22,241 bases of DNA from positions 64,001 to 86,241 of IMG/VR virus record IMGVR_UViG_3300044620_000288. The stretch is one strand, 5' to 3'. The notes under the pieces are model-generated. The model did no database searches, was not told the origin of the DNA, and worked only from the letters and a program-made list of their open reading frames with translations. How positions within the stretch are numbered: position 1 is the stretch's first letter; each line of letters opens with the position of its first letter. This document shows positions 1 through 22,241 of the stretch, in pieces. The stretch comes from a virus (taxonomy: Duplodnaviria; Heunggongvirae; Uroviricota; Caudoviricetes). Both the position numbers and the translations under genes were made by a program.

Positions 1-3000
1 CAAGGAGGCTTTGCTACTAAACAAGAAGCAGAAGATTATTTAAAAGAAGTAGAAGAAAAGTTAGGGGTAGAAGATAAAATCAACGCTAAGTATGATGCAG
101 AACTAGCTGCTTTAGAAGGACAACCTGCTCCTACACCAGAAGCTCCTGTAAACTTGAATGCAGAGTTGGTAAAGACGTTAACAGAAGAAAGAGATCAAAA
201 GCTTTCAGATCTGATGCCTCTCTACGGTACGGCTAGAAAGACTATGATGCAACTAGGGGATGAGGCTTTAGATCTAGGAGACCGTAATATTTTAGCAGAT
301 CCTGTTAAGTATTTAGAAGGTCGCATTGCACAAGGGGAATATAGTTTACAGCAAAGTATAGATAGGTTAAAAGCACTTGATACTAATAATCCTGATAATG
401 CTAAGGAAGCTAAAAACTTACAACGTTATATTGATACAGAAAAAATTGTTTTAGGAAAGACATATCCTAAACTTGAACAGATAAAAGCTGTAGTAGCTGA
501 GTATAATGATAAGATGAGTAGAATAGGAGAAACTCCTACACCTGCTGCACAATCTTATGACAACAAAGGAACCACTGGGCCTAGCACAGACTTCCGTGTA
601 GTTGCTAAAGGTGAGCAGAAGGAAGACAAGATGGATGACCTAGACTTAGCTGAGTTTAAGAAATGGCATGCCGCTAATGTTCCTGGTATTCCTTACGAGA
701 TATTAGAAAACATTGTTCGTAGAAACCCAGACATTACAGCTTGGGGTGTATTTGAGAATGGTGTTGCTAAGTTCTACAGAAGTGCTACACGTGGTACAGA
801 ATATCATGAGGTGTTCGAGGGTATATGGAAAGGTTTTCTTTCTCCTGGTGAAAGACAAGACTTATTAAATGAGTTTAGAAGTCAAGCTGGTACCTTCAAA
901 GATAGAGCTAGTGGGCGTGATGTTGAATATGCTGCTGCTACAGATACAGAGGCTAAGGAAAGAATTGCTGATGACTTTGCTGATTTCAGAGTGGGTAAAC
1001 TTCCTGTTAGAAGCTTGGGTGACTTGATTATCAGATTCTTCAGATCTATCATGAACTTCTTTAAGAATTTCAATGCTAAACCTACACTTAAAAAACAATT
1101 GTTTGAAGCAATTGATTTAGGTAAGTTTAAGGAGAGTGTTCTTCCTGATACAGTGAAGAATGAGGCTGCTGCATATAGAGAGATTGAAGGACTGTCTGAA
1201 CAACAAGCTCAGAAGTTTGTAGAAGATATGACAGCAAGGGTTGCTGGTCTAGTCTTCCTCAAGGCAAAGAAGTATTTGTACACTCCTCAAAAGCTTACAA
1301 GTAAGCAAATCTTTGGAGAGATAGAAGAGATGTATCTAAGGGAAGGTCAAACTCCAGGATGGAATGGTGTAAACAAACGCACTAAGCTTGGAGATGGTCG
1401 CTGGGAAGCTCTTGTACAAAGAACAAAAGAAAAGCTACGCATACTAGGTGTTACATTTAACGAGGATGGTATAATCAAACTTAATGGAGAAGACACCAAT
1501 AAGAATGACTATGCTCCTGAGGCGTTCACTGTAGACATTAAGAAAGGTGCGTCGTTTGATGTTAAGTTTACACTTGCTACTCTGTTCAAGGCTAAGGCTA
1601 TGGACCAGAGCAATACACTGAACCTAGAAATGCCTGATGCTCAGATTGATGCAGAGGTATTAGGATATAAACTTCTCAACTTCAGTACAGCATTTGCTAC
1701 ACTGCTTGAGAGACTATCTAACACTAGTGGAGTGAACAACATGACAGACAAGCTATTAGAGCTTGCAGCAAATGATGCTGATTATGTTCGTATGTTTACA
1801 CGCCTAGGTGGTAAGAAAGACAAATCTATTCCATACAAAGACTTCAAGGCTGAGGACTGGAAGTTCTTCATTAGCTTCACACAAACCTTTACAAGACAGA
1901 GACCTGATGCAATGGTACAGCGTGTTGCTGGTGGTGAGACATTTACCACTCCTGCAAATGTACAAACTGCTGCTAGACAACAAGTTGACACATGGGTGAC
2001 CAACATGAAGGTGTTGTCTAGAACAAATAAAGGAGCTATTGTATACAATAGTGCTACACAAACTTATAAGGCTAATACAAAGAAGCTTAAGGATATGCCT
2101 ATTGGCACTTCTAAGCAGATGATAGAATTCCTAAATGAGATTGGTGTTACATTTGATTCAGACACATACAAGAAGCTAAAGAGCTATGGTGGAGATAAGA
2201 GTCAAAAGAATCAGTTTGCTGCTGCTGTAAAAGATATCCGTGCCTTCTTACAAGACACTGATGACCTTCTTACAGTGACTGGTCAAACTCTAGGCATCAC
2301 TACACAACTAAACACACTTGGTCGTCTATACATAAATGCAAACAATCCTAACCAAGACATCACATATTTTGGTATCGAGAGGAAGAGGATGCAAGCATAC
2401 ATTGATAACAACACTGCATCAGTGTTTGAGAATGAGTTTAATGAGGCTACCACTCTGGATGAGCTATTAGAAAAGCGTCCTGAGCTACAGGATATATTCT
2501 CCACTGGCGCTCAAATACTTAAGAAGGGTGGACTTTATTTTGACAAGGATGGTAACAGAATTAGAGAGATTAAAGTGATGACCATTCAGGGTGTAGAGAA
2601 TAGTGATGAGTCTAAGAGTAAAGGTATTTCTAGACTTGGTCTAGGAGAGCGTTTCTCTCTTGAAATAAATGAGAACCTAAACGGTAACTTCTATATTCTT
2701 ATTCCTGCAGATAGTTCTACAGAATGGATGATGAATGTTGGTAACCAAATCAGCTACCAAGAGTTTGCTGATGGTAAAGCCTGGAACAAAATCTATTCCA
2801 TCTACAAGGGTTATCTGATGGATGACATTGCTCTAGCACGTGATTTCAAGAATCGTGGTAAGCTGAACAATGTTAATGCAAGAGCTAAAGAGTTACGTTT
2901 CTTTAATGATATCCTTCGTCCTAAGACACTAGAGAAACTAAACAGCATGATAGCTGATAAGTCAGTTTCTATGGAGGAGATTGAGAAATATGTAAACGAG

Positions 3001-6000
3001 AACCAAGAATCAATCAACCAAGATGTTGCTGGTTTCTTAGAAGGTATTACAGACACTACATTTAACACTCTTAAAGACAATGATCAAATTGTTCCTATTC
3101 AGGAAGGTTGGACATGGGATAGTCTGGACAATACATTTGCTCGTAAGAACAATATTAATAAAACCAAACCTATCATAGAAGACGTTCTGAAGCAAGTGTT
3201 GCTATTCAGAACTGTTAACTATACAATCAATAACATTGAATATCACAAGATAATATTCGGTGACCCACTTCAGTTCTCTACAGAGAAGGGTAAGTTTGAT
3301 GAGACCAAGCGTATCAAGAGCTTCCTATCTCCACGTAGAACAACATTTGATGTTGCTGAATTTGATAACTTCTTAAATGACAATCTGAATGAGGTGGCTG
3401 GTATTGCACTTCAACCTCCTAAAGATGACAGACCTGCTGACCCTGGTTACCATAACCACAAAGCTTACACAAGAACTGTAACATTTGCAGATCCTAAAAT
3501 AGCTGGTGCATTAGCAAACATCATTCCTGCGTATGCAGACATTAAAGAAGCTGATGCTGCCTCTTGGTTAATGGATACAACATTCAGAGAGATTAAGAAT
3601 AAGAACGGTCAATGGACTGATGAGGCTGAAGATTTCCACCAATGGCAAATGGCTAACACAAGAAAGAAGCTGGCTGCTAAAGGTGAATACACATATGCTA
3701 GCTCTGAGCTAAAAGCGTATGATGAAAAGCTCACATCTACACCTTCTCCTAAATACACATTAGAGATATTGAAACCTATTGTGTCTGGTGTTAAATACAA
3801 CTCAAACAACATCAACCTGGTGCTAGACAAGTTCTCTCAGATGCCTATCTACTACAGTATGGTGGAAGGAACTACTCTAGAGAAGTTATATATACAGATG
3901 TGGAAACAAGGATATGGTTATGCAATTGTAGAATCAGGAAGAAAGGTGGGAGCTGAAGGCTTACATTCTATCTACAATCCTAATGGTACATTTAATGAGG
4001 AAGCATTTAACAACTTTGTTGATGTTCCTTGGAAAGCATACGGTATCCAGGTGGAGAATATATATGATGAGGGTAAAGAACAAACTCGTGGTTCTCAGTC
4101 TACCAAGTTGATTAGCATTGACTTATTTGCTAACGGTGAGGTGTTTGGAGCTACAGGTGCACGTGCTGAATACATTAAGAATCTATACAAGAAGAATGTT
4201 AAAGACCTAGACAGAATGCATGCCAATGCTTATAATAACCTACTTAAAAAGCTTGGTGTTGTAGACAATGGTCAAGGATTTACTCTTGAAGATAAACAAG
4301 CGTTGTCTGAAGTGTTAGTGTATGAGATGTTCCGTAGAGAGCTCTCTGAGAATGCTAAAGACACTGTTAGACTTAATGAGGAAGATGAGTTCAGAATTCC
4401 TTTTGAGGCATCTCCATCTTATGTACAAATCAGAAACATCATCTACTCAATGGTTGAGAAAGCTATTCTCTCTCCTAAGATGGGTGGTAAGCCATTAGTT
4501 CAGGCTCCTGTAACCATGTGGGAGAATGCTGAGAAAGGCAGAAGTCTGGTTCAAAAGACTAAAGATGGATGGAAGAAGATATCTAGAGAAGAGTATGAGG
4601 CACTAGAGGATAGTGAGAAGAAGAAGGTGCGCATGACTAGTGACACACTCAAGTTCTATACAAAAGATAAGCCATATATGGAAGTGATGCTTCCACATTG
4701 GTTTAAAGATAAGCTTGCTGCTAAGAAGTTTAAAACTGACCAGGAAATACTTGATTACATCAATAAAAGTCCTGACGGTGCTAAGATTCTTAGAGGTATT
4801 GGTTTCCGTATTCCTACACAGTCTTTGTCTTCAATAGACTCATTTAAGGTGGTAGGGTTCCTACCTCAATATATGGGAGATACTGTTATAGTTCCTACAG
4901 AACTAGTTACCAAGTCAGGATCTGACTTTGACATAGATAAACTCAATACCTATTTAAGAAACGTATATGTAGATGCTACAGGCAACCTTAGACTTGTTAA
5001 ATACAATGGTTCTGAAGAAGCTACAAAACAATTCTTTACAAAGGTGTATGAAGACACCATCCAAACTGAGATTGACAGAATAGATAAGTTTGAAGACTTC
5101 AGAGACAGAATGTTCTCTGTGTTGATAGATGTTGAGGACTTAACAGACTTCTCTTCAGAATCTGTAAACGCAGCAATAGATGAGCAAGATGTTGACTTCT
5201 TCTATGATAACTTAAACCTATTCAAAGAAATTATAAAGCAAGCTGCTGATGCAAATCTTCCTGCTAGTGAATACATTGCACAACAGGTTGAGAAGCTGGC
5301 AGATAAGAAAACCAAACTCACTAAGAAGATCTTTAACGAGAAGCTTAAGAATGAGTTTGTAGAAGATATGTATAAGCGCTCCCTCGAGAATGAATACTAT
5401 GATTCTTTTGAAGAGTTGCTTACACTTCCTGAGAACTTCAATCGTCTCATCAGCCCTGTGGGTGATGGTGGCTTGAAAGAAATTGCTACAGAGATTGAAG
5501 ACCTATTAGGTGAGAAAGAGGTTGATGTTAAGAACAAGATCATCAACCCTAACTACATGACCACTTTGAGACACGCCTTCATAACTGCTAAGGCATGGGT
5601 GGGTATTGGTGCTGTAAACATTACCAACCACTCTCTATCTCAGAAGGTTACAGTGATTATGGATCCTGAGAAGATAAAGAACTCTCCTGCATTTGACCAG
5701 AAGTTCTTAGGTGACGGTGGTATTCTACTACCTCACAACAAGGTGACTGTTAACGGTAAGGAGTACATATCTATGTCTGGTGTACTAGATGCAGATGGTA
5801 AACTTTACATCTCTGATGGTTTGTCTGGATATATTACATCATTTGTGGATGTGGCTAAAGATCCATACATCATGAAGGTGATTAGAAGTACAAAGGCTGT
5901 TGGTACATTTATGGTGATGCAAAGAATGGGTGTTCCTATTCGTACAGCAGCTCTGTTCATGAACCAACCTATCATCAGAAAATACTTAGAACTTGTAGAA

Positions 6001-8289
6001 GGAACAGGAGCTCGTGGATTATTTGGTCGCAAGAACATGTCTACTATCATGGACAGATTCCCTGTTAAAGAAGGAGATGTTGCAGAAGTGGCTGATACTA
6101 TTGATGTTGAAAATCTTGCAGAAAACATCCGTGAGTTTGCAGAAAAAGGAAAGCTGAGCACCCTCAAGAAGAATGCTGAGCAACAACTTATATTCCAACA
6201 GTTCTTGAGACTGGCTAAGATGGCTGATTACAACTTTAAGTTTACACAGGCTATCAACTATGACACTAGTAAGTTCAAGAGTGCAGATGCTTTAAGCAAG
6301 AAGGTTATGAAAACTGACCTGGCTGCAGAGAATAACATCTTCACATCTCCTACAGAGGTGCTTGATAACTCACACATTGGAAACCAGAAGAAAATCTTAG
6401 GATTGTCTGTGGATGCTACGGGTGCCATCTTTGTATTAGACCAAGACAGATTTAGAGCTATCACAGATAAGATACTTGATCAATACAAGCAAAGAGAGTT
6501 TATAGCTGAAGATGATTATGATCGTATCTCTAATAAGGTGAGAGCATCGTTCCTAGACTATGTTATACAAACTAGAACAGGACTGAACGCTTCTATCAAA
6601 CCTTTGTTGATTGATGCTAACACATCTGTAGCTACACGTCTAGCTGAAGCTAAGACATTGTATGCCAATGAGTTACCTATCCTTAGACAACTTGAGGTGA
6701 GATTTAATAGAGAGAACGGTATACACACAGTGATGCTAATGGCTAACGTAAAGGATGCTGCTAGTGAGAATATGTACATCGGTATGATGAGAGAGCTTAG
6801 AAACAATCCTAAGACTAACCAACTGTACAAAGATTTAGTTACACTTTCCATCCTTCAGGGTACATACCAAACAGGTGTGTCTATCAAGAACATTATTCCT
6901 ATTGAAGACTACAGTGCTGTTGTAGCTCCTGTAATTTCAGGCTTGAGAGTGACAGAAGATATGGATGCATTCGCTGAAGGAATGTTCCAGCGTAATAACT
7001 GGGATGATAACATGGTGTTCTATCCTTTGAATGAGGTGTTCTTTAGAACTCTTACAGTAGATCCTAGGTATCAAGACATTGCTGGTGAGGCTGTGTATGA
7101 ATACTTCTCTCCTGTTTTCCCAAATAATGATGCTTTAAAAATCAAATCTAGTCAAAGAATAATCTTATATTTGGACGAGAATTATGATAGTGAAGCAATT
7201 GGTAGCGGGGACTATGTAAAGATAAAGAGAGTGGTGGCTAATAAAAACGGTGGTGAACTTGTAGATGTTCTGAAGGGTGTGGGTCTTTCCAAAAAAGCAT
7301 ACGCGATAATGAAGAAAGCTGGTAATCCAATGATTACACAAGTACTTGGTTATCAGAAAGTTAAATACCCTGGAACAGATGTTCCTGTAACTGTAGGTGT
7401 AAAGAACTACAAAGGAGATATTGAAAACAAGTATGTATATAAACTCATCAACCTTTATGGTGAGGGTTCATTTGGCTCAGAGTATTACACAGACTTCAAA
7501 CCTTCTGTAGTGGATAACAACACTGTTACAATTAAGAATGAGATTCCTGATAGCGATATTGTAGCTGCTTTATCTCAGGATATTAAGGTGGATGATATTA
7601 TGCAACAGTCTGCTACACCTACAAATGATGTGAAAGTGGACATGGGAAGACAAGCTGAAATAGAACCTGGACTTGGGCTCACTAAAGAAAACTTTGAATT
7701 CCCTGAGGGTTATGATGAAGCCATGGCTGCAGCTGCTGTAACAGGTCTATCTTCTGAAACAAAGATTAACATCTATGCTGGTACAGGGGAGAATGCTGAG
7801 TTAAGTAACTTTGCTAAGAGACCTTTTATATTAGGAGATGATATAACATATCCTACAGTAGAACATGCTTTTCAATTAGAAAAATTACAATATAGCAATG
7901 CTTATACAGATGAGCAAAGGGAAGCCATAATAAGAGATATGATTACTAAATCTGCTGCACAAGTAAAAGCATTTGGTAAAACTATCAAAGGATTGAATGT
8001 AAAAATGTGGAATGAAGATGCTTCTGAAATAATGAAAGATTTAATAAAACAATCTTTTCAAGCAAACCCAGCAGCTCTTCAAAAATTATTGGCTACAGGA
8101 AATGCTGAACTTACCCATACACAAGATAATACTAAATGGGGTAAAGAGTTCCCTAAACTACTTATGGAGGTTAGAAAGGAGCTAAGACCTCAAGCACCTG
8201 CTAAACCTGAAGCAACTCAAATAGACTTGTTTGATACCAATGATGAAAACCTTGATGGGGCAGATGAATCTAACCCATGTAAACGATAA
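1..8289 (+). CDS. Giant virion-associated DNA-dependent RNA polymerase (phi14:2 gp66-like, two-barrel family), 5'-partial; zincin-like domain near N-terminus, NADAR domain at C-terminus
   Basis: Frame 1 is open from base 1 (QGGFATKQEAEDYLKEVEEKLGVEDKINAKYDAELAALEG...), so the TTG at 154 is probably not the true start. Motifs seen: GFRIPTQ (4801-4821), GDTVIVP..SGSDFDIDK (DFDID at 4924-4938), KEADAASW, LKPIVSG, ESGRKVG, GSQSTKL, VDVAKDP, FMNQPII. DFDID is the catalytic motif described for the crAss-like phi14:2 virion RNAP. Confidence 0.92.
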   Translation, partial: QGGFATKQEAEDYLKEVEEKLGVEDKINAKYDAELAALEGQPAPTPEAPVNLNAELVKTLTEERDQKLSDLMPLYGTARKTMMQLGDEALDLGDRNILADPVKYLEGRIAQGEYSLQQSIDRLKALDTNNPDNAKEAKNLQRYIDTEKIVLGKTYPKLEQIKAVVAEYNDKMSRIGETPTPAAQSYDNKGTTGPSTDFRVVAKGEQKEDKMDDLDLAEFKKWHAANVPGIPYEILENIVRRNPDITAWGVFENGVAKFYRSATRGTEYHEVFEGIWKGFLSPGERQDLLNEFRSQAGTFKDRASGRDVEYAAATDTEAKERIADDFADFRVGKLPVRSLGDLIIRFFRSIMNFFKNFNAKPTLKKQLFEAIDLGKFKESVLPDTVKNEAAAYREIEGLSEQQAQKFVEDMTARVAGLVFLKAKKYLYTPQKLTSKQIFGEIEEMYLREGQTPGWNGVNKRTKLGDGRWEALVQRTKEKLRILGVTFNEDGIIKLNGEDTNKNDYAPEAFTVDIKKGASFDVKFTLATLFKAKAMDQSNTLNLEMPDAQIDAEVLGYKLLNFSTAFATLLERLSNTSGVNNMTDKLLELAANDADYVRMFTRLGGKKDKSIPYKDFKAEDWKFFISFTQTFTRQRPDAMVQRVAGGETFTTPANVQTAARQQVDTWVTNMKVLSRTNKGAIVYNSATQTYKANTKKLKDMPIGTSKQMIEFLNEIGVTFDSDTYKKLKSYGGDKSQKNQFAAAVKDIRAFLQDTDDLLTVTGQTLGITTQLNTLGRLYINANNPNQDITYFGIERKRMQAYIDNNTASVFENEFNEATTLDELLEKRPELQDIFSTGAQILKKGGLYFDKDGNRIREIKVMTIQGVENSDESKSKGISRLGLGERFSLEINENLNGNFYILIPADSSTEWMMNVGNQISYQEFADGKAWNKIYSIYKGYLMDDIALARDFKNRGKLNNVNARAKELRFFNDILRPKTLEKLNSMIADKSVSMEEIEKYVNENQESINQDVAGFLEGITDTTFNTLKDNDQIVPIQEGWTWDSLDNTFARKNNINKTKPIIEDVLKQVLLFRTVNYTINNIEYHKIIFGDPLQFSTEKGKFDETKRIKSFLSPRRTTFDVAEFDNFLNDNLNEVAGIALQPPKDDRPADPGYHNHKAYTRTVTFADPKIAGALANIIPAYADIKEADAASWLMDTTFREIKNKNGQWTDEAEDFHQWQMANTRKKLAAKGEYTYASSELKAYDEKLTSTPSPKYTLEILKPIVSGVKYNSNNINLVLDKFSQMPIYYSMVEGTTLEKLYIQMWKQGYGYAIVESGRKVGAEGLHSIYNPNGTFNEEAFNNFVDVPWKAYGIQVENIYDEGKEQTRGSQSTKLISIDLFANGEVFGATGARAEYIKNLYKKNVKDLDRMHANAYNNLLKKLGVVDNGQGFTLEDKQALSEVLVYEMFRRELSENAKDTVRLNEEDEFRIPFEASPSYVQIRNIIYSMVEKAILSPKMGGKPLVQAPVTMWENAEKGRSLVQKTKDGWKKISREEYEALEDSEKKKVRMTSDTLKFYTKDKPYMEVMLPHWFKDKLAAKKFKTDQEILDYINKSPDGAKILRGIGFRIPTQSLSSIDSFKVVGFLPQYMGDTVIVPTELVTKSGSDFDIDKLNTYLRNVYVDATGNLRLVKYNGSEEATKQFFTKVYEDTIQTEIDRIDKFEDFRDRMFSVLIDVEDLTDFSSESVNAAIDEQDVDFFYDNLNLFKEIIKQAADANLPASEYIAQQVEKLADKKTKLTKKIFNEKLKNEFVEDMYKRSLENEYYDSFEELLTLPENFNRLISPVGDGGLKEIATEIEDLLGEKEVDVKNKIINPNYMTTLRHAFITAKAWVGIGAVNITNHSLSQKVTVIMDPEKIKNSPAFDQKFLGDGGILLPHNKVTVNGKEYISMSGVLDADGKLYISDGLSGYITSFVDVAKDPYIMKVIRSTKAVGTFMVMQRMGVPIRTAALFMNQPIIRKYLELVEGTGARGLFGRKNMSTIMDRFPVKEGDVAEVADTIDVENLAENIREFAEKGKLSTLKKNAEQQLIFQQFLRLAKMADYNFKFTQAINYDTSKFKSADALSKKVMKTDLAAENNIFTSPTEVLDNSHIGNQKKILGLSVDATGAIFVLDQDRFRAITDKILDQYKQREFIAEDDYDRISNKVRASFLDYVIQTRTGLNASIKPLLIDANTSVATRLAEAKTLYANELPILRQLEVRFNRENGIHTVMLMANVKDAASENMYIGMMRELRNNPKTNQLYKDLVTLSILQGTYQTGVSIKNIIPIEDYSAVVAPVISGLRVTEDMDAFAEGMFQRNNWDDNMVFYPLNEVFFRTLTVDPRYQDIAGEAVYEYFSPVFPNNDALKIKSSQRIILYLDENYDSEAIGSGDYVKIKRVVANKNGGELVDVLKGVGLSKKAYAIMKKAGNPMITQVLGYQKVKYPGTDVPVTVGVKNYKGDIENKYVYKLINLYGEGSFGSEYYTDFKPSVVDNNTVTIKNEIPDSDIVAALSQDIKVDDIMQQSATPTNDVKVDMGRQAEIEPGLGLTKENFEFPEGYDEAMAAAAVTGLSSETKINIYAGTGENAELSNFAKRPFILGDDITYPTVEHAFQLEKLQYSNAYTDEQREAIIRDMITKSAAQVKAFGKTIKGLNVKMWNEDASEIMKDLIKQSFQANPAALQKLLATGNAELTHTQDNTKWGKEFPKLLMEVRKELRPQAPAKPEATQIDLFDTNDENLDGADESNPCKR
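640..1100 (+). other. Degenerate zincin-like (HExxH-derived) domain within the RNAP protein; boundaries approximate
   Basis: TAWGVFENGVAKFYRSATRGTEYHEVFEGIW (HEVFE at 805-819, second His replaced by Glu), followed by AKERIADDF at the usual EExxAxxF position. Confidence 0.65.
4924..4938 (+). other. RNAP catalytic DxDxD motif (DFDID)
   Basis: gac ttt gac ata gat, in frame, downstream of RIPTQ. Confidence 0.92.
7762..8187 (+). other. NADAR (YbiA/DUF1768-like) domain at the RNAP C-terminus
   Basis: Motifs appear in NADAR order: LSNF..PF, YPTVEHAFQLEK (E at 7861, K at 7882), W....IMKDLI...F.ANP...KLLATGNAEL, DNTKWG, LLMEVRKELR. Confidence 0.85.
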
Positions 8290-8294
8290 TTAAT

Positions 8295-11200
8295 ATGGCG
8301 TGTAAAGTTAAATATGTAGAACAAGAGTATAGGAAGAACTATCCTGAACTGGCTGATAAACTTAATCAGAAGTATACAGACATTTGGAAGGATATTACCG
8401 ACTCTAATCTATTTAGAAAGTATGGTGATGGTCCAACGGCTACTTATTTGCTTTCCAAAGCTGGCACTGAACAGCAACAGAAGCAGGTTAACTTTATTGC
8501 CAAACTGAATGAGAAGTATGAAACTCCTCAGGGCAAGTCAATTATACAAGGTGCTCCTACAAAGGCTGGGAACAATACAAAGATATTAGTGAATGTCCAT
8601 CCTCTGGCACAAGGAGAGTGGAGCAAGCTACAAAAACCTGAACAGGGAACATTGTTCCAATTGCGTGGTGGTACCATGGGATCTAATGCATCTCCTAAGA
8701 CCATTGCAATGATTAAGGACTTCCTTACACGCATTGGTGTTAGCACTAAGAATGTTAATGGTATTGTAGTGAATGGTGTTCAGATGAATGCAAACGCTGC
8801 AGCCATTGTAACACAGAAGCTTATTCAGGTGGTGAATGGCATGGAAGCTAGAGCTCTTCCTGAGGAAGCTATGCACTTTGCTGTAGAAATCATCAAGCAA
8901 ACTAATCCCAAGCTTTACCAAAAACTACTTAACGAAATCAATAGCTACCAAATACTAAGAGATACATTTGCTGAGTATAGCAACAATCCTCTTTATCAAA
9001 CAGAAGATGGTAGACCTGATGTATTGAAAATCAAAGATGAGGCTATTGCCAAGGTGCTTTCTGAAACAATCATCTATCAAGGTGAGAACAATAAAGAAAG
9101 TATGGAGAAACTTGCTAAGGTGCAGACCTGGTGGGGACAAATGTTGGAATGGCTCAAAGGTCTGTTCTCTAGAAGTGGATTTGATCAAGCAGCTATGGAC
9201 ATCATCTCTGGAAAAGAAATTGGTACAGCTGATGACATCCGTGCTAATGAGAATGAGATATTCTTACAGCAGTCTAAACAAGAACAGATATTTAATACCA
9301 TTAAGTCTGGCTCTATGGCTGTTGAAAAGCGTGGAGATGGTTACTATGTAAATGGTAAGAAAGTTCCTAAACGTGTAACAGATCTTGTTAATGACTGGTA
9401 TGAGCGTAGGTTTAGAGAGAAGAAACTAACAGACAGTGAGTTCCAGAAGGCTATTGACTCAATGAAAGCTGACAAGGGTACAGCTGGACATATTGATTTG
9501 GAGGAAGCATTTAAAGTGTATGTAGATCCTCAGACAGGACTAATGAGACCTGAGCCTTTAAATGATGATGCTTACGTATCTCAGCTTAACAAAGATGACC
9601 GTAAATATTACATCACTCTAAGAGATAATCTTAAGAAGCGTTTGGACTCATTTGGTCCTAATGCAAGATTCCTTGCTGAAGCTATAGTGTATGATGCTAA
9701 GAGACCGGGGGGTGGTATTGCTGGTACAATTGACTTCATAGCTATTACAGAAGATGGTAAAGTGAACATGCTTGACTGGAAGTTTACCAACCTCAATACA
9801 AATAAGTATGATGATATTCCTTGGTATAAAGTGAACGCATGGCGTACACAGATGAACCAGTACAAGTTAATCCTCAAGACAGCATATGGTATTAAGGAAG
9901 ATCAGTTTGATCAAACCAGAATGATTCCTATACAGGCTATCTACACAGAGGCTGATTATAAAAAAGAAATCTTACCACGCCTATCTGGTATTAAAATAGG
10001 AGATGTAGATATAAAGAACATCGAGGAAGACTATTTACTTCCTGTTGGTCTAGAGGAAGAAGTTACAGGAGAAGAAGAACTAGATGACTTGTTGGCTAAG
10101 CTCAACCGCATCTACAAAAGAATGTCTGAGAAAAAGGCAACACCTGGTGAAAAACTTACTAAGGCTGAACAACTTAACTCTTTGTACACAGCTATTCGTC
10201 ACCTTCAGATGAGAAGAGATGCTAAGTCTCTTGTATACCAAGCTCGTCTTATCAACAAACAAATTGAGGACATATTCACAAAGTTTGAAGATAAGTTTAA
10301 AGGTAAAGATCCATTAAGCTTTACAGAGAAAGAGCGTAGTGATTTTACAAAAGAAATGGCAGATGGACTAGAAGCACTAGAAACATATGCTGATTTGGCT
10401 ACAGATCTTGACTTCTTGTTCAGAGGTGAGCTTGATAAAGCTACAGAAGATGTTAAGAGTGAAATATACAAAGCTAGTTCTGCAGCTAAACTATTGAGAT
10501 CTAGATTGTTGAAACTGGACAAGTCTTTCACTAATGACTTCATTGCCCTATCTGAAAAAGTGAAAGGAGCTAAAGAAGGAGAGAAAACTGTTACAGGTGC
10601 AACTAAGTGGTTTAGTAGTACAGCCACCTTGCAGATTAAAGCTGCACAGGTGTTATTCAGAAAAGCTAACCGTGCCTTCACTTATGCAGGTATGGACACA
10701 GCTGCAGAAAGTAGAAGACTTGCTGAGATAAAAACCAAATATGATGCTTGGGCTAAAGGAAAAGGTCTAACATCCAATAACTACTTTGACATCATTAGAA
10801 AGAAAGCTGATTCATATCAGAAGGAAGCAGATGCTCGTAAGAAAGCTGAGATGGAAGAGCTAAACAAAATGAAGCCTGAAATCTCTGAGGAATCATACAA
10901 GCAAGAAGTTGAGAAGATTAATCAGCGTTATGAGAATGCTATCAAGGATAAGAACCAATTGATTGATGAGTTTGATCCTCAGTTCTATTCAAAACTCAAC
11001 TCTGCTATAGCCCAGAAGGACTATGCATGGATTAGAGATAATATAGATAAAGCTGAATATGCTGAGCACTTACGTAAGAAACTAGATGAAGAAGAGCAAC
11101 GCATATTTGATAAACCTCGTATTGGTACAGAGGAAGACATTGCTAATCAGATCAAGACAGAACTGAGAAAAGCAAAAGAACTATACAACATTACTACAGA

Positions 11201-13409
11201 CCAATCTATAGGATGGTTACTGTATGATGAGATAAAGCAGTTTCCAAATAAGGAAACTTGGGAGTCTAAGGAATGGAAAGAACTTACAAAGAAGGATGCT
11301 TCTGGTAAATTCATTAACCAACCAGCTATTGACTTCTATAATTATATCCGTGAGAGAAACGAACTATACAGAGACCTTGGCTACATTAATGCTAAGCAGT
11401 CTAGGGTGTTCCTACCTTGGGTGAGAAAAGGACTTACAGAAAAGCTTGTGCTTGGTGGTAATGTCACTGTTGGTGAACAGTTCCTCAGGACAATATCTAT
11501 TGATGAGGGAGATGTGGGATATGGACAACGTGATGCTATTAGTGGTAAACTAATAGACAAGGTGCCTATCTATTTCACTAGAGAGTTAGAAGGAGATGTT
11601 AGTACAGACCTTTTTAGAACAATGTCTTTATACAATGAGTTTGCTCTCAGGTATAAATACCTAAGTGATATTGAGGACCAGGTGCTAGCATTAAATAGAC
11701 TTGAGAGAAACAAGAGATCTATTGCTACATCATTCTGGGGAAAGACAGAATATAAAGATGGAGAACTCCAATACAACCCTGACAATAGTGAGAATGCTAA
11801 GATTATAGAAGACATGACCAAGGCTATTGTGTATCAGCAGAAGTTTATTCAGAGCGATACATTTGATATGGTGCTTGGAAAGATTGGTACCGTAGGAGAA
11901 AGTATAAATAAAAAGCTTGGATTCAAGCTTATACCTGAAGGACTTGCTGGAAGACAAATCAGTATAAATAAGAGTATTGATGCTCTGAATACCACCTTCC
12001 AATTACAGGCTTTAGGACTGAATGTATTATCATCCATGTCCAACTTGTTTGGTGGTACAACACAATCCTTGATTAATTCAGGTAGATATTTCACTAAGGG
12101 AGACTTTGTGAAAGCTGAGGGTAAGCTCCTATGGAATAAACTTGGAGGAGAAGATGCTAAGAAATTTATAGCAGCTAAGAACTTCTTCATGCCTTTCACA
12201 GAAAACTACAACAGAGATTTGGCTAAGAACCTGTCTATGAGTAGAGTGAGTCAGGAGAGCATTCAAGACTTCCTCATGGTACTCATGAGAAACTCTGACC
12301 GTGCTGTACAAGCTGTTAACTTTTATGCCTTCCTTGAGAATAGTATAGTGGTTGATGGTCAAGTTGTTAATGTTAGAGAATACCTCAGACAACAACCTGA
12401 GTACATTGGTAAGATGTATGATGGAACCAGAGAGGAAAGAAAATCTAGATCTGACAAGTTTGAACAAGATGTACAGAAGCTTATTGAGGAAAAGGGTGTA
12501 ATGAAACTTGGTAAGATTGAGGGAGATGAATTTGTAATCCCTGGCGTAGACCAGAAGTCTGAAAGTGTTGTTGAGTTCAGAAGGAAGGTGCAACAAGTTA
12601 CAGCTGATGCTCTTGGTAACATGTCAGAAGCTAACAAACGTCTCATCAACCTAAATGTGTATAGCAATTCATTCATGGTGTTCAAAAACTGGATCCCTCG
12701 TCTGATTGATGTACGTTTTGGTAATCTTAAATACAACTCTGCCTCAGACGCTTATGAATGGGGTAGAATGAGAATGCTGTTTAGATTTGTAGCTACAGAT
12801 ACCATTAAGTCTTTAAACAGTTTAAAGAGTTCTCTCCTAGGAAATGATGACCAGTTTATTCAACAGGTGCGTAATCTGTATGAAAAAAAGAAAGCTGACT
12901 ATGAGAAGGACACTGGTAAAGAGCTAGAAATGACTGAGGATGAATTCATTGACTTGGTTAGAAGGAACATAAAGAACCAGCTTTTAGACGTTCTCATTTT
13001 CATTGCTCTATTGGGTATCTACTTTGGACTCAAGGCAAACATGCCTGATGATGACGAAGACCCAGCTGTAAGAAACAGATGGAAGTTCATGCTCAAGGCT
13101 ACAGACAAGTTCTCAGATGAGATTGCCTACTTCTACAACCCTACCAACATATCTAAGTTGGTGTCTACAGGTATATTCCCATCCTTAGGACTGATAGAAA
13201 ACTATAAGAAAACCCTGACTAACTTTGGAAAGGAGATGTTTGGATTGGCAATAGGAGATGAGGAATTGGTAGAAGAGAACCAGGTTATCAAGTATTTGAT
13301 GAAGTCTTTTCCTATCACTAGCCAAGGAGCAGCCCTTCTTCCTATGTTCTCTCCTGAGACAGCTAAAGACCTAGGAATCAAGATGCCTTCTCAGTCAGGA
13401 ATTAGATAA
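8295..13409 (+). CDS. Giant virion cargo/ejection-like protein (1704 aa): degenerate zincin-like domain, PD-(D/E)XK nuclease, long helical region, C-terminal hydrophobic helix
   Basis: ATG lies 5 nt after the RNAP stop. Motifs: ALPEEAMHFAVE (8862-8876), KGTAGH, IAGTIDFIAITEDGKVNMLDWK, QMNQY, LLDVLIFIALLGIYFGL. Its position next to the RNAP matches crAss-like cargo gene clusters. The CDS is certain; the ejection role is inferred. Confidence 0.8.
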   Translation: MACKVKYVEQEYRKNYPELADKLNQKYTDIWKDITDSNLFRKYGDGPTATYLLSKAGTEQQQKQVNFIAKLNEKYETPQGKSIIQGAPTKAGNNTKILVNVHPLAQGEWSKLQKPEQGTLFQLRGGTMGSNASPKTIAMIKDFLTRIGVSTKNVNGIVVNGVQMNANAAAIVTQKLIQVVNGMEARALPEEAMHFAVEIIKQTNPKLYQKLLNEINSYQILRDTFAEYSNNPLYQTEDGRPDVLKIKDEAIAKVLSETIIYQGENNKESMEKLAKVQTWWGQMLEWLKGLFSRSGFDQAAMDIISGKEIGTADDIRANENEIFLQQSKQEQIFNTIKSGSMAVEKRGDGYYVNGKKVPKRVTDLVNDWYERRFREKKLTDSEFQKAIDSMKADKGTAGHIDLEEAFKVYVDPQTGLMRPEPLNDDAYVSQLNKDDRKYYITLRDNLKKRLDSFGPNARFLAEAIVYDAKRPGGGIAGTIDFIAITEDGKVNMLDWKFTNLNTNKYDDIPWYKVNAWRTQMNQYKLILKTAYGIKEDQFDQTRMIPIQAIYTEADYKKEILPRLSGIKIGDVDIKNIEEDYLLPVGLEEEVTGEEELDDLLAKLNRIYKRMSEKKATPGEKLTKAEQLNSLYTAIRHLQMRRDAKSLVYQARLINKQIEDIFTKFEDKFKGKDPLSFTEKERSDFTKEMADGLEALETYADLATDLDFLFRGELDKATEDVKSEIYKASSAAKLLRSRLLKLDKSFTNDFIALSEKVKGAKEGEKTVTGATKWFSSTATLQIKAAQVLFRKANRAFTYAGMDTAAESRRLAEIKTKYDAWAKGKGLTSNNYFDIIRKKADSYQKEADARKKAEMEELNKMKPEISEESYKQEVEKINQRYENAIKDKNQLIDEFDPQFYSKLNSAIAQKDYAWIRDNIDKAEYAEHLRKKLDEEEQRIFDKPRIGTEEDIANQIKTELRKAKELYNITTDQSIGWLLYDEIKQFPNKETWESKEWKELTKKDASGKFINQPAIDFYNYIRERNELYRDLGYINAKQSRVFLPWVRKGLTEKLVLGGNVTVGEQFLRTISIDEGDVGYGQRDAISGKLIDKVPIYFTRELEGDVSTDLFRTMSLYNEFALRYKYLSDIEDQVLALNRLERNKRSIATSFWGKTEYKDGELQYNPDNSENAKIIEDMTKAIVYQQKFIQSDTFDMVLGKIGTVGESINKKLGFKLIPEGLAGRQISINKSIDALNTTFQLQALGLNVLSSMSNLFGGTTQSLINSGRYFTKGDFVKAEGKLLWNKLGGEDAKKFIAAKNFFMPFTENYNRDLAKNLSMSRVSQESIQDFLMVLMRNSDRAVQAVNFYAFLENSIVVDGQVVNVREYLRQQPEYIGKMYDGTREERKSRSDKFEQDVQKLIEEKGVMKLGKIEGDEFVIPGVDQKSESVVEFRRKVQQVTADALGNMSEANKRLINLNVYSNSFMVFKNWIPRLIDVRFGNLKYNSASDAYEWGRMRMLFRFVATDTIKSLNSLKSSLLGNDDQFIQQVRNLYEKKKADYEKDTGKELEMTEDEFIDLVRRNIKNQLLDVLIFIALLGIYFGLKANMPDDDEDPAVRNRWKFMLKATDKFSDEIAYFYNPTNISKLVSTGIFPSLGLIENYKKTLTNFGKEMFGLAIGDEELVEENQVIKYLMKSFPITSQGAALLPMFSPETAKDLGIKMPSQSGIR
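9340..10060 (+). other. PD-(D/E)XK (RecB/AddB/Cas4-like) nuclease domain; boundaries approximate
   Basis: GT..H motif (9477-9491), E..V, GTID (D at 9732), DWK (9774-9782) and the RecB-family QxxxY motif (9849-9863). Confidence 0.82.
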
Positions 13410-13889: not shown

Positions 13890-16800
13890 ATGAACGTACT
13901 TCCTAACATACTACAGTATGGAAGTAGTGGCACATCTGGTACTTCAGGTGTGTCACAGGCTTCTGACTGCGTAGATAATTTACCAGTTTATATAAATCCA
14001 GTAGTGGCTTCCGTAGAGCCACCACCTAGTGAATTATCATCTAGTCAGCCCTCCTTTTTGTCTAGACTATATGGTAGGGCTCCTGTTCAGGAGACTCCTC
14101 CTATTATTATTAGTGAGCCACTCATCTATGTGGCTCCTGCTCCAATCGATCCAAACAATAATCAAAGCTTTTTATCTAAGCTCCTTGGTGGAGACTGTAG
14201 AAATACGTCTTTCACAAACAGCCCTGTCATATGTTCTGCTGATGCCTGTCCTATTATATTAGACGCCACTTGTGTGTTCTATGAAGGATACAATCTCATC
14301 TATACAGGGATTAGTGCTAATGACAACCTTCAGACAGCTCTTGAGAAGATAGAGGAAACCTTTGCCAATAGTTTGGCAGGAAGCTCTGGTACGTCTGGCA
14401 CCTCAGGTAGTTCAGGTACATCTGGCAGTTCTGGGACTGCTGGAACAACAGGTACTTCAGGTACAACTGGTACAAGCGGAACCTCAGGAACCACAGGTAC
14501 AAGTGGAAGTTCTGGGACTAGTGGCACTACTGGGACCAGTGGTACAACGGGTACATCAGGTACAACTGGCACTAGCGGTACGTCAGGTACTAGCGCTACA
14601 TCTGGTACATCAGGCACTGCAGGAACTAGTGGCACCTCAGGTACTACGGGTACAAGTGGTACATCAGCTACTGATGGTACAGGAGGTACGAGTGGTACGT
14701 CTGGTACAGATGGAACTTCTGGCTCAAGTGGAAGTTCTGGTACATCGGGCACTTCAGGAACCACTGGAACAAGTGGTACAACTGGCACCTCAGGAACGAG
14801 TGGTACTGCTGGCTCTTCAGGTACTAGCGGTACAACAGGAACGAGTGGTAGTTCAGGTAGTACAGGAACATCAGGGACATCTGGCACTACAGGTACTAGT
14901 GGTACGTCTGGCTCTAGTGCTACAGACGGAACAGGGGGTACATCAGGTACTTCAGGTACGTCAGCAACTAGCGGATCAAGTGGGACAACAGGAACCTCAG
15001 GAAGCTCAGGTACTGCAGGTACTTCTGCAACTAGTGGAAGTTCAGGCACTTCTGGAACATCAGGTACTGACGGAACAGGAGGATCAAGTGGTACTTCTGG
15101 CACTTCTTCTACCTCAGGAACATCAGGAAGTTCTGGAACTGATGGATCAGAAGGAACATCTGGTACAAGTGGTACGAGTGCCACAAGTGGTACTTCTGGA
15201 TCTACAGGGACCTCTGGAACGAGCGGTAGCACAGGAACATCAGGTAGTAGCGGTACAAGTGGCACCTCTGCAACAGATGGCACTGGTGGTACATCAGGAA
15301 CAAGTGCAACGAGCGGAACCAGTGGAACCAGTGCTACATCAGGTACGTCTGGTACAGCAGGGACAACAGGTACATCTGGATCTTCAGGTTTGAGTGGTGA
15401 TAGATTTGCCACAACATCAACATCAACATATACATTAGGAGCTGTAGGTTCTTCAGGAACTATTACAGTGGGAACAGGACTAGCATACACTGTGGCCCAA
15501 TCTATCATTATTGCCTACGATGCTAATAATCACGTAGAAGCTGAGGTGACTTCATACAACCCATCGACTGGCTCATTGAGCTTTACTGTATTTAGACTTA
15601 CAGGGTCTGGTACATACAGTCTTTTCCAAGTGAATCTAGATGGTGCAACAGGTGGTGATGGTTCTAGTGGATCATCAGGCACTAGTGGTACGTCCGCAAC
15701 AGCTGGTACCTCTGGTACAACAGGTACATCGGGTTCAAGTGGCACGTCTGCCACATCAGGAAGTTCAGGTACCACTGGCACAAGTGGAACAGGTGGAACT
15801 TCTGGAACCAGCGGCACTACAGGCACATCTGGCTCAAGCGGAAGTAGTGGATCTTCAGGAAGTAGTGGCTCTAGTGGAACCTCTGCCACCTCTGGTACAA
15901 GTGGAACATCTGGAACAAACGGTAGTGGAGGCACTAGTGGAACAAGTGGGTCATCTGGTAGCTCAGGATCGTCTGGTACAGCTGGTACAGCAGGTAGTCC
16001 TGGTACGTCTGGAACTAGTGGTAGTTCTGGAACAGGAGGATCGTCTGGTACATCAGCAACCTCTGGAACATCAGGTTCAAGCGGAACCTCAGGTAGTAGT
16101 GGTACTACGGGAACTTCTGGTACCACGGGAACGTCTGGTACTAGTGGTACCTCAGGAGCAACTCAAGCTTTCTCTAATGTTCTAACTATGAACAGTGGTG
16201 GAGCTGGAGATGCTTCAGGAACAACATATAATGGTTCTGCTTCTAGAACTCTTTCTTATAATACAATAGGTGCTGCAGCTTCTGCTAATTTTAAAGTATT
16301 AGGAGCAAATGTTAATTATGATGTAAATAGATCAATAAAAACATCAGGTGGGGGTCTTGCTATATATTCAGGATATTCTACAGGTACTAACAGACCAACT
16401 ACATATGATATTTCTGCTCAATTTGCTGCAACAAATGATATAGCTTTTGAGATAGCTGCCGATTGGTTAAGCGGTTCAGGACCTACACTTTATGCTAGAT
16501 CTCTTCGTGACTGTTGTCAGGATTGGTCGTCTTGGGTAACTATTCTTACTTCTTTAAATTACAATTCCTATTCACCAACGTTAACAGGTGGTGGAGCTTC
16601 AGGAACATGGGGCATCAATATTACAGGTAACGCTGAAACTGTAGATGGATTTAGTGCATCTCAGTCTACTATTGCAAATGGAATTGTAGTAAGAGACCCT
16701 AGCGGATATATCTTTGGTAGCTATATCAACATGACTGATGACGGTAATCCGGGAGGAGGTACATCAATCACTTCATTTATTACTAAGCAAGGAGATAATT

Positions 16801-21171: not shown

Positions 21172-22241
21172 TTATAAAAGGGCTAGCAGTGGTACCACCA
21201 CGTCGCTAGCCTTTATTTTTTTGTGGCATTCCCATTGTCTGTCTGTGCCCTTATGCTCAGGACACCAGTCCCAATCTCCTGCATCAAATCTGTATTCAGC
21301 TTTGTTCCAGCATCCATGACATACATTTGTATTAGTGATTCTGATACAGCTAAACTCATGATCTGCATCTGTGAAGTTGGATATCATTACCACCTTCTTA
21401 TCCATAGCCCACGCTAACCAGCTGAGTCCACTGGACAATCCAATGAATAGGTGACTGTGATGGATTACATTCATAGTGTTCTCCATGGATGTGTCTTCTA
21501 TCTGTATACAGTTGTCAAAAGGATTCTTCTCCTTAGACACATTGATCACCTGATATCCTTTCTCATGTATATAGTTTATCACAAGTTGCCATTCTTCCTT
21601 CTGCCAGAACTTACAGCCAGCTGTAGAGTTGGTGGCTATCGTAACATATTTACCATATAAATTGTTACCAGGAGTGAATGCAATTCTAGGTTTAAGTTCT
21701 TGATAATCAAGACCTAAGATGTTGGTAGCTGCCTCTTGAAGCTTTACAGTGTTACACAAAGCTGGTTCCTTGTCTGGATTGTAAAACCAACCAATGCTGT
21801 ACATCCCAAGGATGCCCTCAGCCTTCTGACCAGGATTGATAAACTCAAGCTCTGGATAGACATCCTCAAAGAGGAAGTTCTTAAACGTGCTCACTATTAC
21901 ATGGCAATTGTGCTTCTTCTTAAACTCTAGCACATAAGGCATCCATGCTATTGTATCTCCTAATGACTTACTGTCAAACGCTATGTATACACGCTTACCT
22001 GCGTAGTCTAGAGTGTATTCATAATAGGGCTCATCATCTTTCCATATCTTAATGGTCCACTTAGTGTACCACCTCCTATTTAGCTTAATCCAATTCTGCG
22101 CACCTATTGTATTTCTGTAATGACACACACCTTCCTCATCGATGTATTCCACTCTAAACTTACTCTTAGACCTTCCCTTGATTTCAAGGAACGGTTCTAA
22201 CACAAAGTTGTGATCAATTGTCACATGTTCGTTAGATTGTA
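21172..22241 (-). CDS. TibC/AAH-like (autotransporter O-heptosyltransferase family, GT-B/GT9-related) glycosyltransferase; probably 5'-partial
   Basis: Motifs: RVYIAFDSKSLGDTIAW (Asp at 21955-21957), STAGCKFW, FIGLSSGLSWLAWA..KKVVMISNFT...EF, and CHGCWN...WCP...ECHK with Cys spacing 3/16/12. The frame stays open upstream of the GTG at 22224 to the window edge (..QSNEHVTIDH..), so the real start probably lies outside the window. Confidence 0.82.
   Translation of the reverse strand, partial: QSNEHVTIDHNFVLEPFLEIKGRSKSKFRVEYIDEEGVCHYRNTIGAQNWIKLNRRWYTKWTIKIWKDDEPYYEYTLDYAGKRVYIAFDSKSLGDTIAWMPYVLEFKKKHNCHVIVSTFKNFLFEDVYPELEFINPGQKAEGILGMYSIGWFYNPDKEPALCNTVKLQEAATNILGLDYQELKPRIAFTPGNNLYGKYVTIATNSTAGCKFWQKEEWQLVINYIHEKGYQVINVSKEKNPFDNCIQIEDTSMENTMNVIHHSHLFIGLSSGLSWLAWAMDKKVVMISNFTDADHEFSCIRITNTNVCHGCWNKAEYRFDAGDWDWCPEHKGTDRQWECHKKIKASDVVVPLLALL
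21178..21222 (+). terminator. Intrinsic terminator for plus-strand transcripts, possibly bidirectional; overlaps the 3' end of the minus-strand glycosyltransferase CDS
   Basis: Stem aagggctagc (21178-21187) pairs with gctagccttt (21205-21214), including one G-U. Inner stem gtggt/accac with an acc loop. T-rich tract tttattttttt at 21212-21222. Confidence 0.7.

Follow-up and report, generated by a model that had tools for sequence, protein, structure and literature searches.

No phages are more abundant in the human gut than the crassviruses. Previous work on crAss001 showed that gp47, gp49, and gp50 are virion cargo held in the capsid's cargo zone, and partial unfolding was argued for passage through the tail (PMC10172136). 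In phi14:2, the virion RNA polymerase (vRNAP; gp077, named gp66 in the paper, PDB 6VR4) enters with the DNA and then transcribes the early genes, and fusions of the three cargo modules were already noted (Drobysheva et al.). For both phages, packaging and ejection into the host are known from mass spectrometry and rifampicin-resistant early transcription. In cyanopodophage A4 (Anabaena phage A-4L), cryo-electron microscopy (cryo-EM) of the packaged pre-ejectosome showed Cys1715 of gp27 joined to Cys5 of gp26 by a disulfide, which was treated there as a local stabiliser and not as a general rule (PNAS 2025, PMC12002296). The ejection proteins of N4-like phages (Schitoviridae: N4 gp50-gp52, DEV gp71-gp73) are almost free of cysteine (Cys), which was ascribed to their passage through an oxidising periplasm (PMC11445570). 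Here we describe two neighbouring giant cargo genes in the last 22,241 bases (hereafter, the window) of an 86,241-bp, single-contig phage genome with 39% G+C (IMG/VR record IMGVR_UViG_3300044620_000288, positions 64,001 to 86,241), whose proteins contain a single Cys each, located at the two ends that face one another. We refer to the gp47-like protein as module A, the vRNAP as module B, and the gp49-like protein as module C. The junction consists of the following features, in window coordinates:

1-8289, plus strand: 3' part (2762 codons plus stop) of the polymerase open reading frame (ORF); the whole ORF encodes 4475 amino acids (aa) and spans genome positions 58862-72289.
8278-8280, plus strand: TGT, the sole Cys of the 4475-aa protein (Cys4473), third from the C-terminus; proposed C-terminal clasp residue.
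8287-8294, plus strand: TAA stop codon and a spacer of 5 nucleotides (nt); by sequence, the genes on either side are in different frames.
8295-13409, plus strand: module C protein, 1704 aa with one Cys, of the crAss001 gp49/phi14:2 gp076 family.
8301-8303, plus strand: TGT, the sole Cys of the 1704-aa protein, at residue 3 (MAC); proposed N-terminal clasp residue.

The polymerase ORF ends in DESNPCKR and module C, whose start codon lies directly downstream of B, 5 nt past the polymerase stop, begins MACKVKY; both Cys-Lys pairs are encoded by a TGTAAA hexamer, the two being 23 nt apart. A first-pass annotation of the window had reported one Cys in the visible part of the polymerase, third from last, and one at residue 3 of the 1704-aa protein, and our recount agreed, with exactly 1 in 2762 residues and exactly 1 in the module C protein. 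The N-terminal part of the polymerase, which that annotation could not see, has now been checked as well: the full 4475-aa ORF still contains only that Cys, and its N-terminus (MPIFDN) has none nearby. Upstream of the window are three ORFs of 933, 1178, and 884 aa (genome 49774-58855; L001:774-9855) with zero Cys each. Searches of Pfam and PHROG returned no match for these three ORFs, which are probably channel-forming or other cargo proteins. The five consecutive cargo genes thus contain 2 Cys in 9174 residues, as opposed to ~106 expected at the 1.16% Cys of the rest of the genome (Poisson P ~3e-43), and of 782 TGY triplets counted in them over all frames, 2 are in frame. His is also scarce in the cargo proteins (0.3-0.85%). 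For this genome alone, the probability of the two Cys falling where they do by chance is ~3e-6. ORFs ahead of module A are likewise Cys-free, or nearly so, in Fpv1, cr4_1, cr118_1, cr125_1, cr10_1, cr52_1, cr108_1, phi14:2, and crAss001. The neighbouring fibre-module proteins were described as rich in Cys, and their counts are indeed 3, 8, and 9. Also downstream are a Gly/Ser/Thr-rich, collagen-like fibre protein of 1887 aa (window 13890-19553; 16.8% Gly, 16.5% Ser, 15.4% Thr) and a Cys-rich, minus-strand ORF of 355 aa that lies at the edge of the window (21172-22239).

The closest parallel to this arrangement is A4, in which two large ejection proteins are likewise encoded by adjacent genes, with the sole Cys of the upstream protein third from its end and that of the downstream protein near its start. 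In the A-4L genome we found Cys1715 to be the only Cys of gp27 (1717 aa, ending DNPCQF) and Cys5 the only Cys of gp26 (1114 aa, beginning MSKHC). Here the corresponding residues are Cys4473 of 4475 upstream and Cys3 of 1704 downstream, the bond itself having been seen only in A4. No similarity was detectable between A4 gp27 or gp26 and the crAss modules (best BLASTP E 0.38-0.88) and, judged from these sequences, the resemblance is one of mechanism rather than descent. A4 differs in that it is a T7-like phage whose portal bears a pentameric core, it lacks a virion RNA polymerase, and it has one pair in place of a chain of up to three modules. The N4-like phages resemble the crAss-like ones in having a giant virion polymerase and co-ejected proteins nearly devoid of Cys, and the purge of Cys from crAss cargo fits the argument published for them, i.e., crossing of an oxidising periplasm (PMC11445570). 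However, the N4-type polymerase is a single chain of ~3500 aa with no terminal Cys and a fold unrelated to the crAss enzyme, and the near-total suppression of Cys seen in Schitoviridae, termini included, does not extend to this locus, where the two terminal Cys are conserved exceptions in 9174 residues. The Crassvirales trios (phi14:2 gp078-gp077-gp076; crAss001 gp47-gp50-gp49) consist of homologous modules and follow the same terminal Cys rule. Unlike in those phages, A and B are here joined in a single protein of 4475 aa, to which a NADAR domain has been added, leaving only one Cys pair.

To determine how widely the pair is conserved, we scanned IMG/VR with the 1704-aa protein, which returned 40 loci at 45-87% identity, 38 of them including the junction. 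All 38 module C homologues (1487-2220 aa) contain a single Cys, located at residue 3, 4, or 5 (with heads such as MAC, MPC, MSC, MANC, MAHC, MMGC, MISC, MAKIC, and MAQIC), and all 38 polymerase ORFs upstream of them encode a Cys 1-4 residues from the end (with tails such as C, CK, CKR, CKF, CVPF, and CY). The pair suggested by the first-pass annotation is therefore retained in 38/38 related loci. Among these relatives, the intergenic gap varies between -4 and +24 nt and the distance between the two Cys codons between 14 and 42 nt, with both TGT and TGC in use. The Lys that follows each Cys in this genome proved to be a local feature: among the homologues described below, Lys follows the C-terminal Cys in 20/120, and Lys or Arg the N-terminal Cys in 35/120.

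A whole-library search with residues 1-1200 of module C gave 608 homologues, of which the best 150 (cluster representatives at 50% identity) were analysed; 130 were full length. The first Cys is at residue 3-7 in 115 of the 130 (97 of these 115 have no other Cys), at residue 8-10 in 5, and at residue 12-19 in 3, the last group being probably start-codon miscalls. P0143, an apparent exception, is also a miscall of the start codon, since its cluster mate P0151 begins MACVNPN. Five long proteins have no Cys at all; we rejected these as exceptions to the rule, as the long, Cys-free members of the family are fusions (see below). In total, 120 of the 156 Cys in these representatives (250,830 residues) lie within the first 10 residues, and only 1/130 proteins has a Cys in its last 12. 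The mirror image was obtained from a search with the polymerase core, which returned 120 A+B homologues of 2556-5183 aa (501,954 aa in total; 0.045% Cys): all 120 have a Cys within their last 6 residues, 45 of them as the final residue, and none has a Cys within the first 10. A second Cys occurs in 73/120, mostly in the conserved motif PYCE[VI][ML]LPH. In this genome the motif reads PYMEVMLPH (ORF residue 3272; window about 4675-4700), with Met in place of the motif's Cys; therefore, this lineage has removed even that internal Cys. When the sequences were aligned, neither the first ~100 residues of C nor the last ~60 columns of A+B showed any consensus other than M-x-C and the terminal Cys, respectively.

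We then compared the modules in 15 other phage genomes, comprising 14 Crassvirales from three families and Flavobacterium phage Fpv1 (genus Fipvunavirus), which its record places outside the order. A single rule described all 15: Cys occurs only at module ends that face the next module. The arrangements, including fused proteins from the homologue search, were:

A, B, and C separate (phi14:2): A has 1 Cys, its last residue (ending NTIC); B has 2, at residues 3 and 2179 of 2180 (beginning MAC, ending ECK); C has 1, at residue 3 (MSC).
A, B, and C separate (crAss001, cr128_1, cr116_1): the same four Cys positions as phi14:2.
A+B fused, C separate (this genome, Fpv1, cr108_1, five Suoliviridae): B-C pair only.
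A separate, B+C fused (p-crAssphage ZA, crAss002, cr271_1): A-B pair only (A ending SFSCM, B+C beginning MSC).
A+B+C fused (P0036, 5544 aa): zero Cys.
A-C or partial fusions (P0056, P0072, P0113, P0091): zero Cys.

The outer ends, i.e., the N-terminus of A and the C-terminus of C, are without Cys in all compared genomes. In ZA and crAss002, the MSC start of B+C requires the first or an internal ATG in place of the annotated start; using the first or next ATG, the two proteins begin MSCGN and MSCTP, which fits the conserved M-S-C head. The annotated B+C starts of CrAssphage ZA (non-ATG; L047:9852) and crAss002 gp33 (L048:9768) are probably too far upstream. Even with gene A on the opposite strand and at a distance from B, as in crAss001, cr128_1, and cr116_1, the A protein keeps its sole, or almost sole, Cys at the C-terminal end. 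Since the Cys is kept with gene A on the opposite strand, and since codon (TGT/TGC) and spacing vary, selection acts on the protein and not on the junction DNA. The existence of fused forms further indicates that linear covalent connectivity of A-B-C is functional.

Several observations were made on individual records in these sets. P0036 (NCBI WP_168765770.1) is recorded on a 517-kb contig of Chitinophaga polysaccharea, which points to a crAss-like element that either is integrated in a Bacteroidota chromosome or was assembled together with it. In P0056, P0072, and P0113 (~3000 aa), the N-terminal ~1470 residues of A are joined straight to C, with no polymerase core. The polymerase gene of cr116_1 (MT774389; L056:14987-15828) is split within its DFDxD motif by an insertion that carries a LAGLIDADG-type ORF of 215 aa and is probably a group I intron encoding a homing endonuclease. 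The extra terminal Cys of the cr116_1 'B1' product (ending IKMC) was rejected, being readthrough into this insertion and no real terminus. A similar gap of ~290 bp is present in the polymerase gene of cr108_1 (L044:17101-17392). In cr10_1 (MT774382; L054:18748-22356) there is an unannotated module C gene, whose open frame begins MKIICPNLKNKEV and extends from the final part of the A+B gene, which it overlaps, to the end of the record.

As determined by alignment, the 4475-aa ORF is a fusion of modules A and B with a C-terminal NADAR domain. Its residues 99-888 match crAss001 gp47 residues 83-924 (E 2e-26; the phi14:2 gp078 match has E 3e-4), and since residues 1960-2015 align to gp47 2135-2190 of 2341, module A ends near ORF residue 2170. 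Residues 2784-3713 match the phi14:2 vRNAP, gp077 (E 7e-37; PDB 6VR4 match, E 5e-26). The 1704-aa protein, for which Pfam and PHROGs gave no match, is similar to a 1714-aa protein of cr108_1 (E 3e-16, 4e-13) and to crAss001 gp49 (E 1e-5, 4e-5). By homology, the A+B and C proteins of this phage are predicted to be packaged in the virion and injected into the host. Further features of the two genes are:

900-1600, plus strand: A-B fusion point inside the ORF, rough coordinates from the gp47 alignment.
4924-4938, plus strand: DFDID catalytic motif of the two-barrel vRNAP (GSDFDIDK, same as phi14:2; ORF residue 3355).
7789-8148, plus strand: NADAR (YbiA-like) domain near the polymerase C-terminus (PF08719 E 4e-13; 2B3W E 1.6e-7).
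8149-8286, plus strand: acidic, non-conserved C-terminal tail of the polymerase, ending in the Cys-containing octapeptide given above (from alignment and a low-confidence model).
8295-8620, plus strand: hypervariable N-terminal region of module C, ~100 residues long and preceding the conserved core, in which only M-x(1-3)-C is shared.

The A-B fusion point is here without Cys, whereas phages with separate A and B have a Cys pair there. In homologues, the slot taken by NADAR holds an AlkB-like domain (PF13532), a PIF1/UvrD helicase, PF25176, PF18760, or PF00300, always with the terminal Cys after it, and so looks like a swappable cassette for injected effectors. AlphaFold2 (AF2) models of both protein ends were of low confidence (predicted local distance difference test, pLDDT, < 50 for module C residues 1-9), and the ends are not confidently structured. 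HExxH (zincin-like) motifs sit in different modules in different phages, i.e., at residue 245 of phi14:2 gp076 (C), and in the C-terminal part of A at residue 2157 of crAss001 gp47 and residue 1525 of the cr108_1 2967-aa protein. The motif is absent from the A+B and C proteins of this genome.

On balance, we consider it reasonably likely that the two Cys are the clasp of a head-to-tail disulfide between injected cargo proteins, which would turn them into a reducible pseudo-polyprotein. Cys4473 of A+B would bond to Cys3 of C in the assembled, oxidised particle, and the disulfide would stand in for the peptide bond of the fused forms. The product would be a near-linear thread of ~6200 residues, from which stubs of only 2-3 residues would project at the side, functionally equivalent to the single A+B+C polyprotein of some relatives, and could serve in co-packaging or threading. 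Most C proteins begin MAC or MSC, so that Cys is the second residue once Met is removed; given this near-terminal position and the 45/120 A+B proteins that end in Cys, the linked product would be almost unbranched, which suits a narrow channel. Removal of all other Cys would prevent wrong disulfides and mispairing, and may also avoid trapping by periplasmic thiol oxidases as the unfolded chain crosses tail and envelope. Once inside the host, the thread would be severed at this link by the reducing conditions of the cytoplasm, which would release the polymerase and its partner. Disulfides do form in crassvirus particles, since crAss001 virions hold several resolved ones (PMC10172136). The first-pass annotation had raised a head-to-tail pseudo-polyprotein of this kind, and the comparative data support it strongly: the pair is conserved, faces junctions only, is present where modules are separate and gone where they are fused, and is kept even when the genes are not adjacent. 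Whether the same reading extends to a 'terminal cysteine code' of Crassvirales, by which separate giant cargo proteins are joined into one redox-cleavable thread that passes through the tail and is cut in the host cytoplasm, and which, together with A4, would represent a general principle, reached by convergence, of how short-tailed phages eject proteins, we regard as an evenly balanced question.

Several points weigh against a disulfide tether. The cytoplasm, in which the particles assemble, normally does not allow disulfides to form; therefore, formation of the link would depend on a phage factor or on oxidation following lysis. No clear candidate for a thioredoxin-type CxxC protein was found among this genome's proteins, and gut crassviruses inhabit anoxic habitats. 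Since the 933-, 1178-, and 884-aa cargo proteins have no Cys, any chain would be limited to the polymerase trio; the chaining of cargo proteins proposed in the first-pass annotation would thus apply to that trio and not to the others. The C homologue P0107 lacks Cys, and in crAss001, cr128_1, and cr10_1 the C-terminal Cys is 9-11 residues from the end. Finally, the cargo is not resolved in the crAss001 maps (PMC10172136).

Alternatively, each terminal Cys might bond to some other partner, forming a homodimer or pairing with a Cys of the capsid, portal, or inner body, and so anchor the cargo in the head instead of chaining it. Head and tail proteins of this genome do contain Cys, crAss001 virions use disulfides between structural proteins, and a lone, exposed thiol at a terminus could pair with anything close. 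Yet such bonding leaves unexplained why Cys is confined to ends that face the next module (Cys is found among the first 10 residues of 0/120 A+B proteins and among the last 12 of 1/130 C proteins), and it does not predict the loss of Cys exactly where two modules fuse. Moreover, the link in the A4 structure is a hetero-link between adjacent ejection proteins. We therefore view bonding to a third partner as unlikely.

The comparative data speak for the need of a pair and not for its chemistry, and the thiols could instead form a shared site or a non-disulfide link, e.g., through a bridging metal or other covalent chemistry, or could each be modified, for instance by acylation, as required for contact with a membrane while the proteins are ejected. 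A shared metal site had been raised in the first-pass annotation, and soft metals can be bound by two thiolates. However, two ligands make a weak site, His is depleted along with Cys, neither Cys is accompanied by conserved residues, the N-terminal Cys has no preceding lipobox or signal peptide, and the only structurally seen case of the pattern, A4, is a plain disulfide. We consider these chemistries to be quite unlikely in comparison with the disulfide. Improbable, too, is a role of the terminal Cys as signals without any bond, whether as a packaging mark, a site for trimming by a phage protease, or a redox sensor that switches the polymerase on. Targeting signals typically sit at termini, and Drobysheva et al. 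proposed that fused forms are cleaved, with a zincin-like protease domain possibly activating the polymerase. Nevertheless, it would be unusual for a signal to consist of a lone Cys whose distance from the end varies (1-11 residues) and whose context is not conserved, and this role leaves unexplained both the restriction to junction-facing ends and the joint appearance and loss of the partners with fission and fusion.

Chance, relaxed selection at the termini, or a junction DNA or RNA signal containing TGT codons, for which only the two TGTAAA hexamers of this window speak, can be dismissed almost entirely, as these readings are refuted by conservation of the pair in every relative despite flanks that cannot be aligned, by the variation in codon, spacing, and gene gap described above, and by persistence of the pattern for the opposite-strand gene A of crAss001-type genomes. 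Fusion of the two ORFs by readthrough or frameshifting was rejected, as their frame relation and gap vary, and so was a CaaX-like or lipobox reading, as the Cys is 1-11 residues from the end with neither motif nor signal peptide.

A literature search found no paper that mentions these terminal cysteines in Crassvirales; the word 'cysteine' is absent from the crAss001 structural atlas paper, as are 'cys' and 'disulf' from the phi14:2 preprint. Disulfide-tethered ejection proteins were known from A4, and what is new here is a non-homologous, vRNAP-centred system with order-wide conservation and covariation with fission and fusion. In practical terms, the terminal Cys rule offers an easy way of recognising, from sequence, ejected cargo and true start codons in metagenomic phage genomes, e.g., the B+C starts of crAss002 and p-crAssphage ZA. 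How megadalton amounts of protein, including an RNA polymerase, pass through a narrow tail is an open question according to the crAss001 structure paper (PMC10172136) and a 2026 N4 paper. A reducible covalent tether, if true, would account for the packing of the three proteins at a constant ratio, for their successive entry into the channel and their separation inside the cell, and for the ease with which fusions and fissions of the modules are tolerated.

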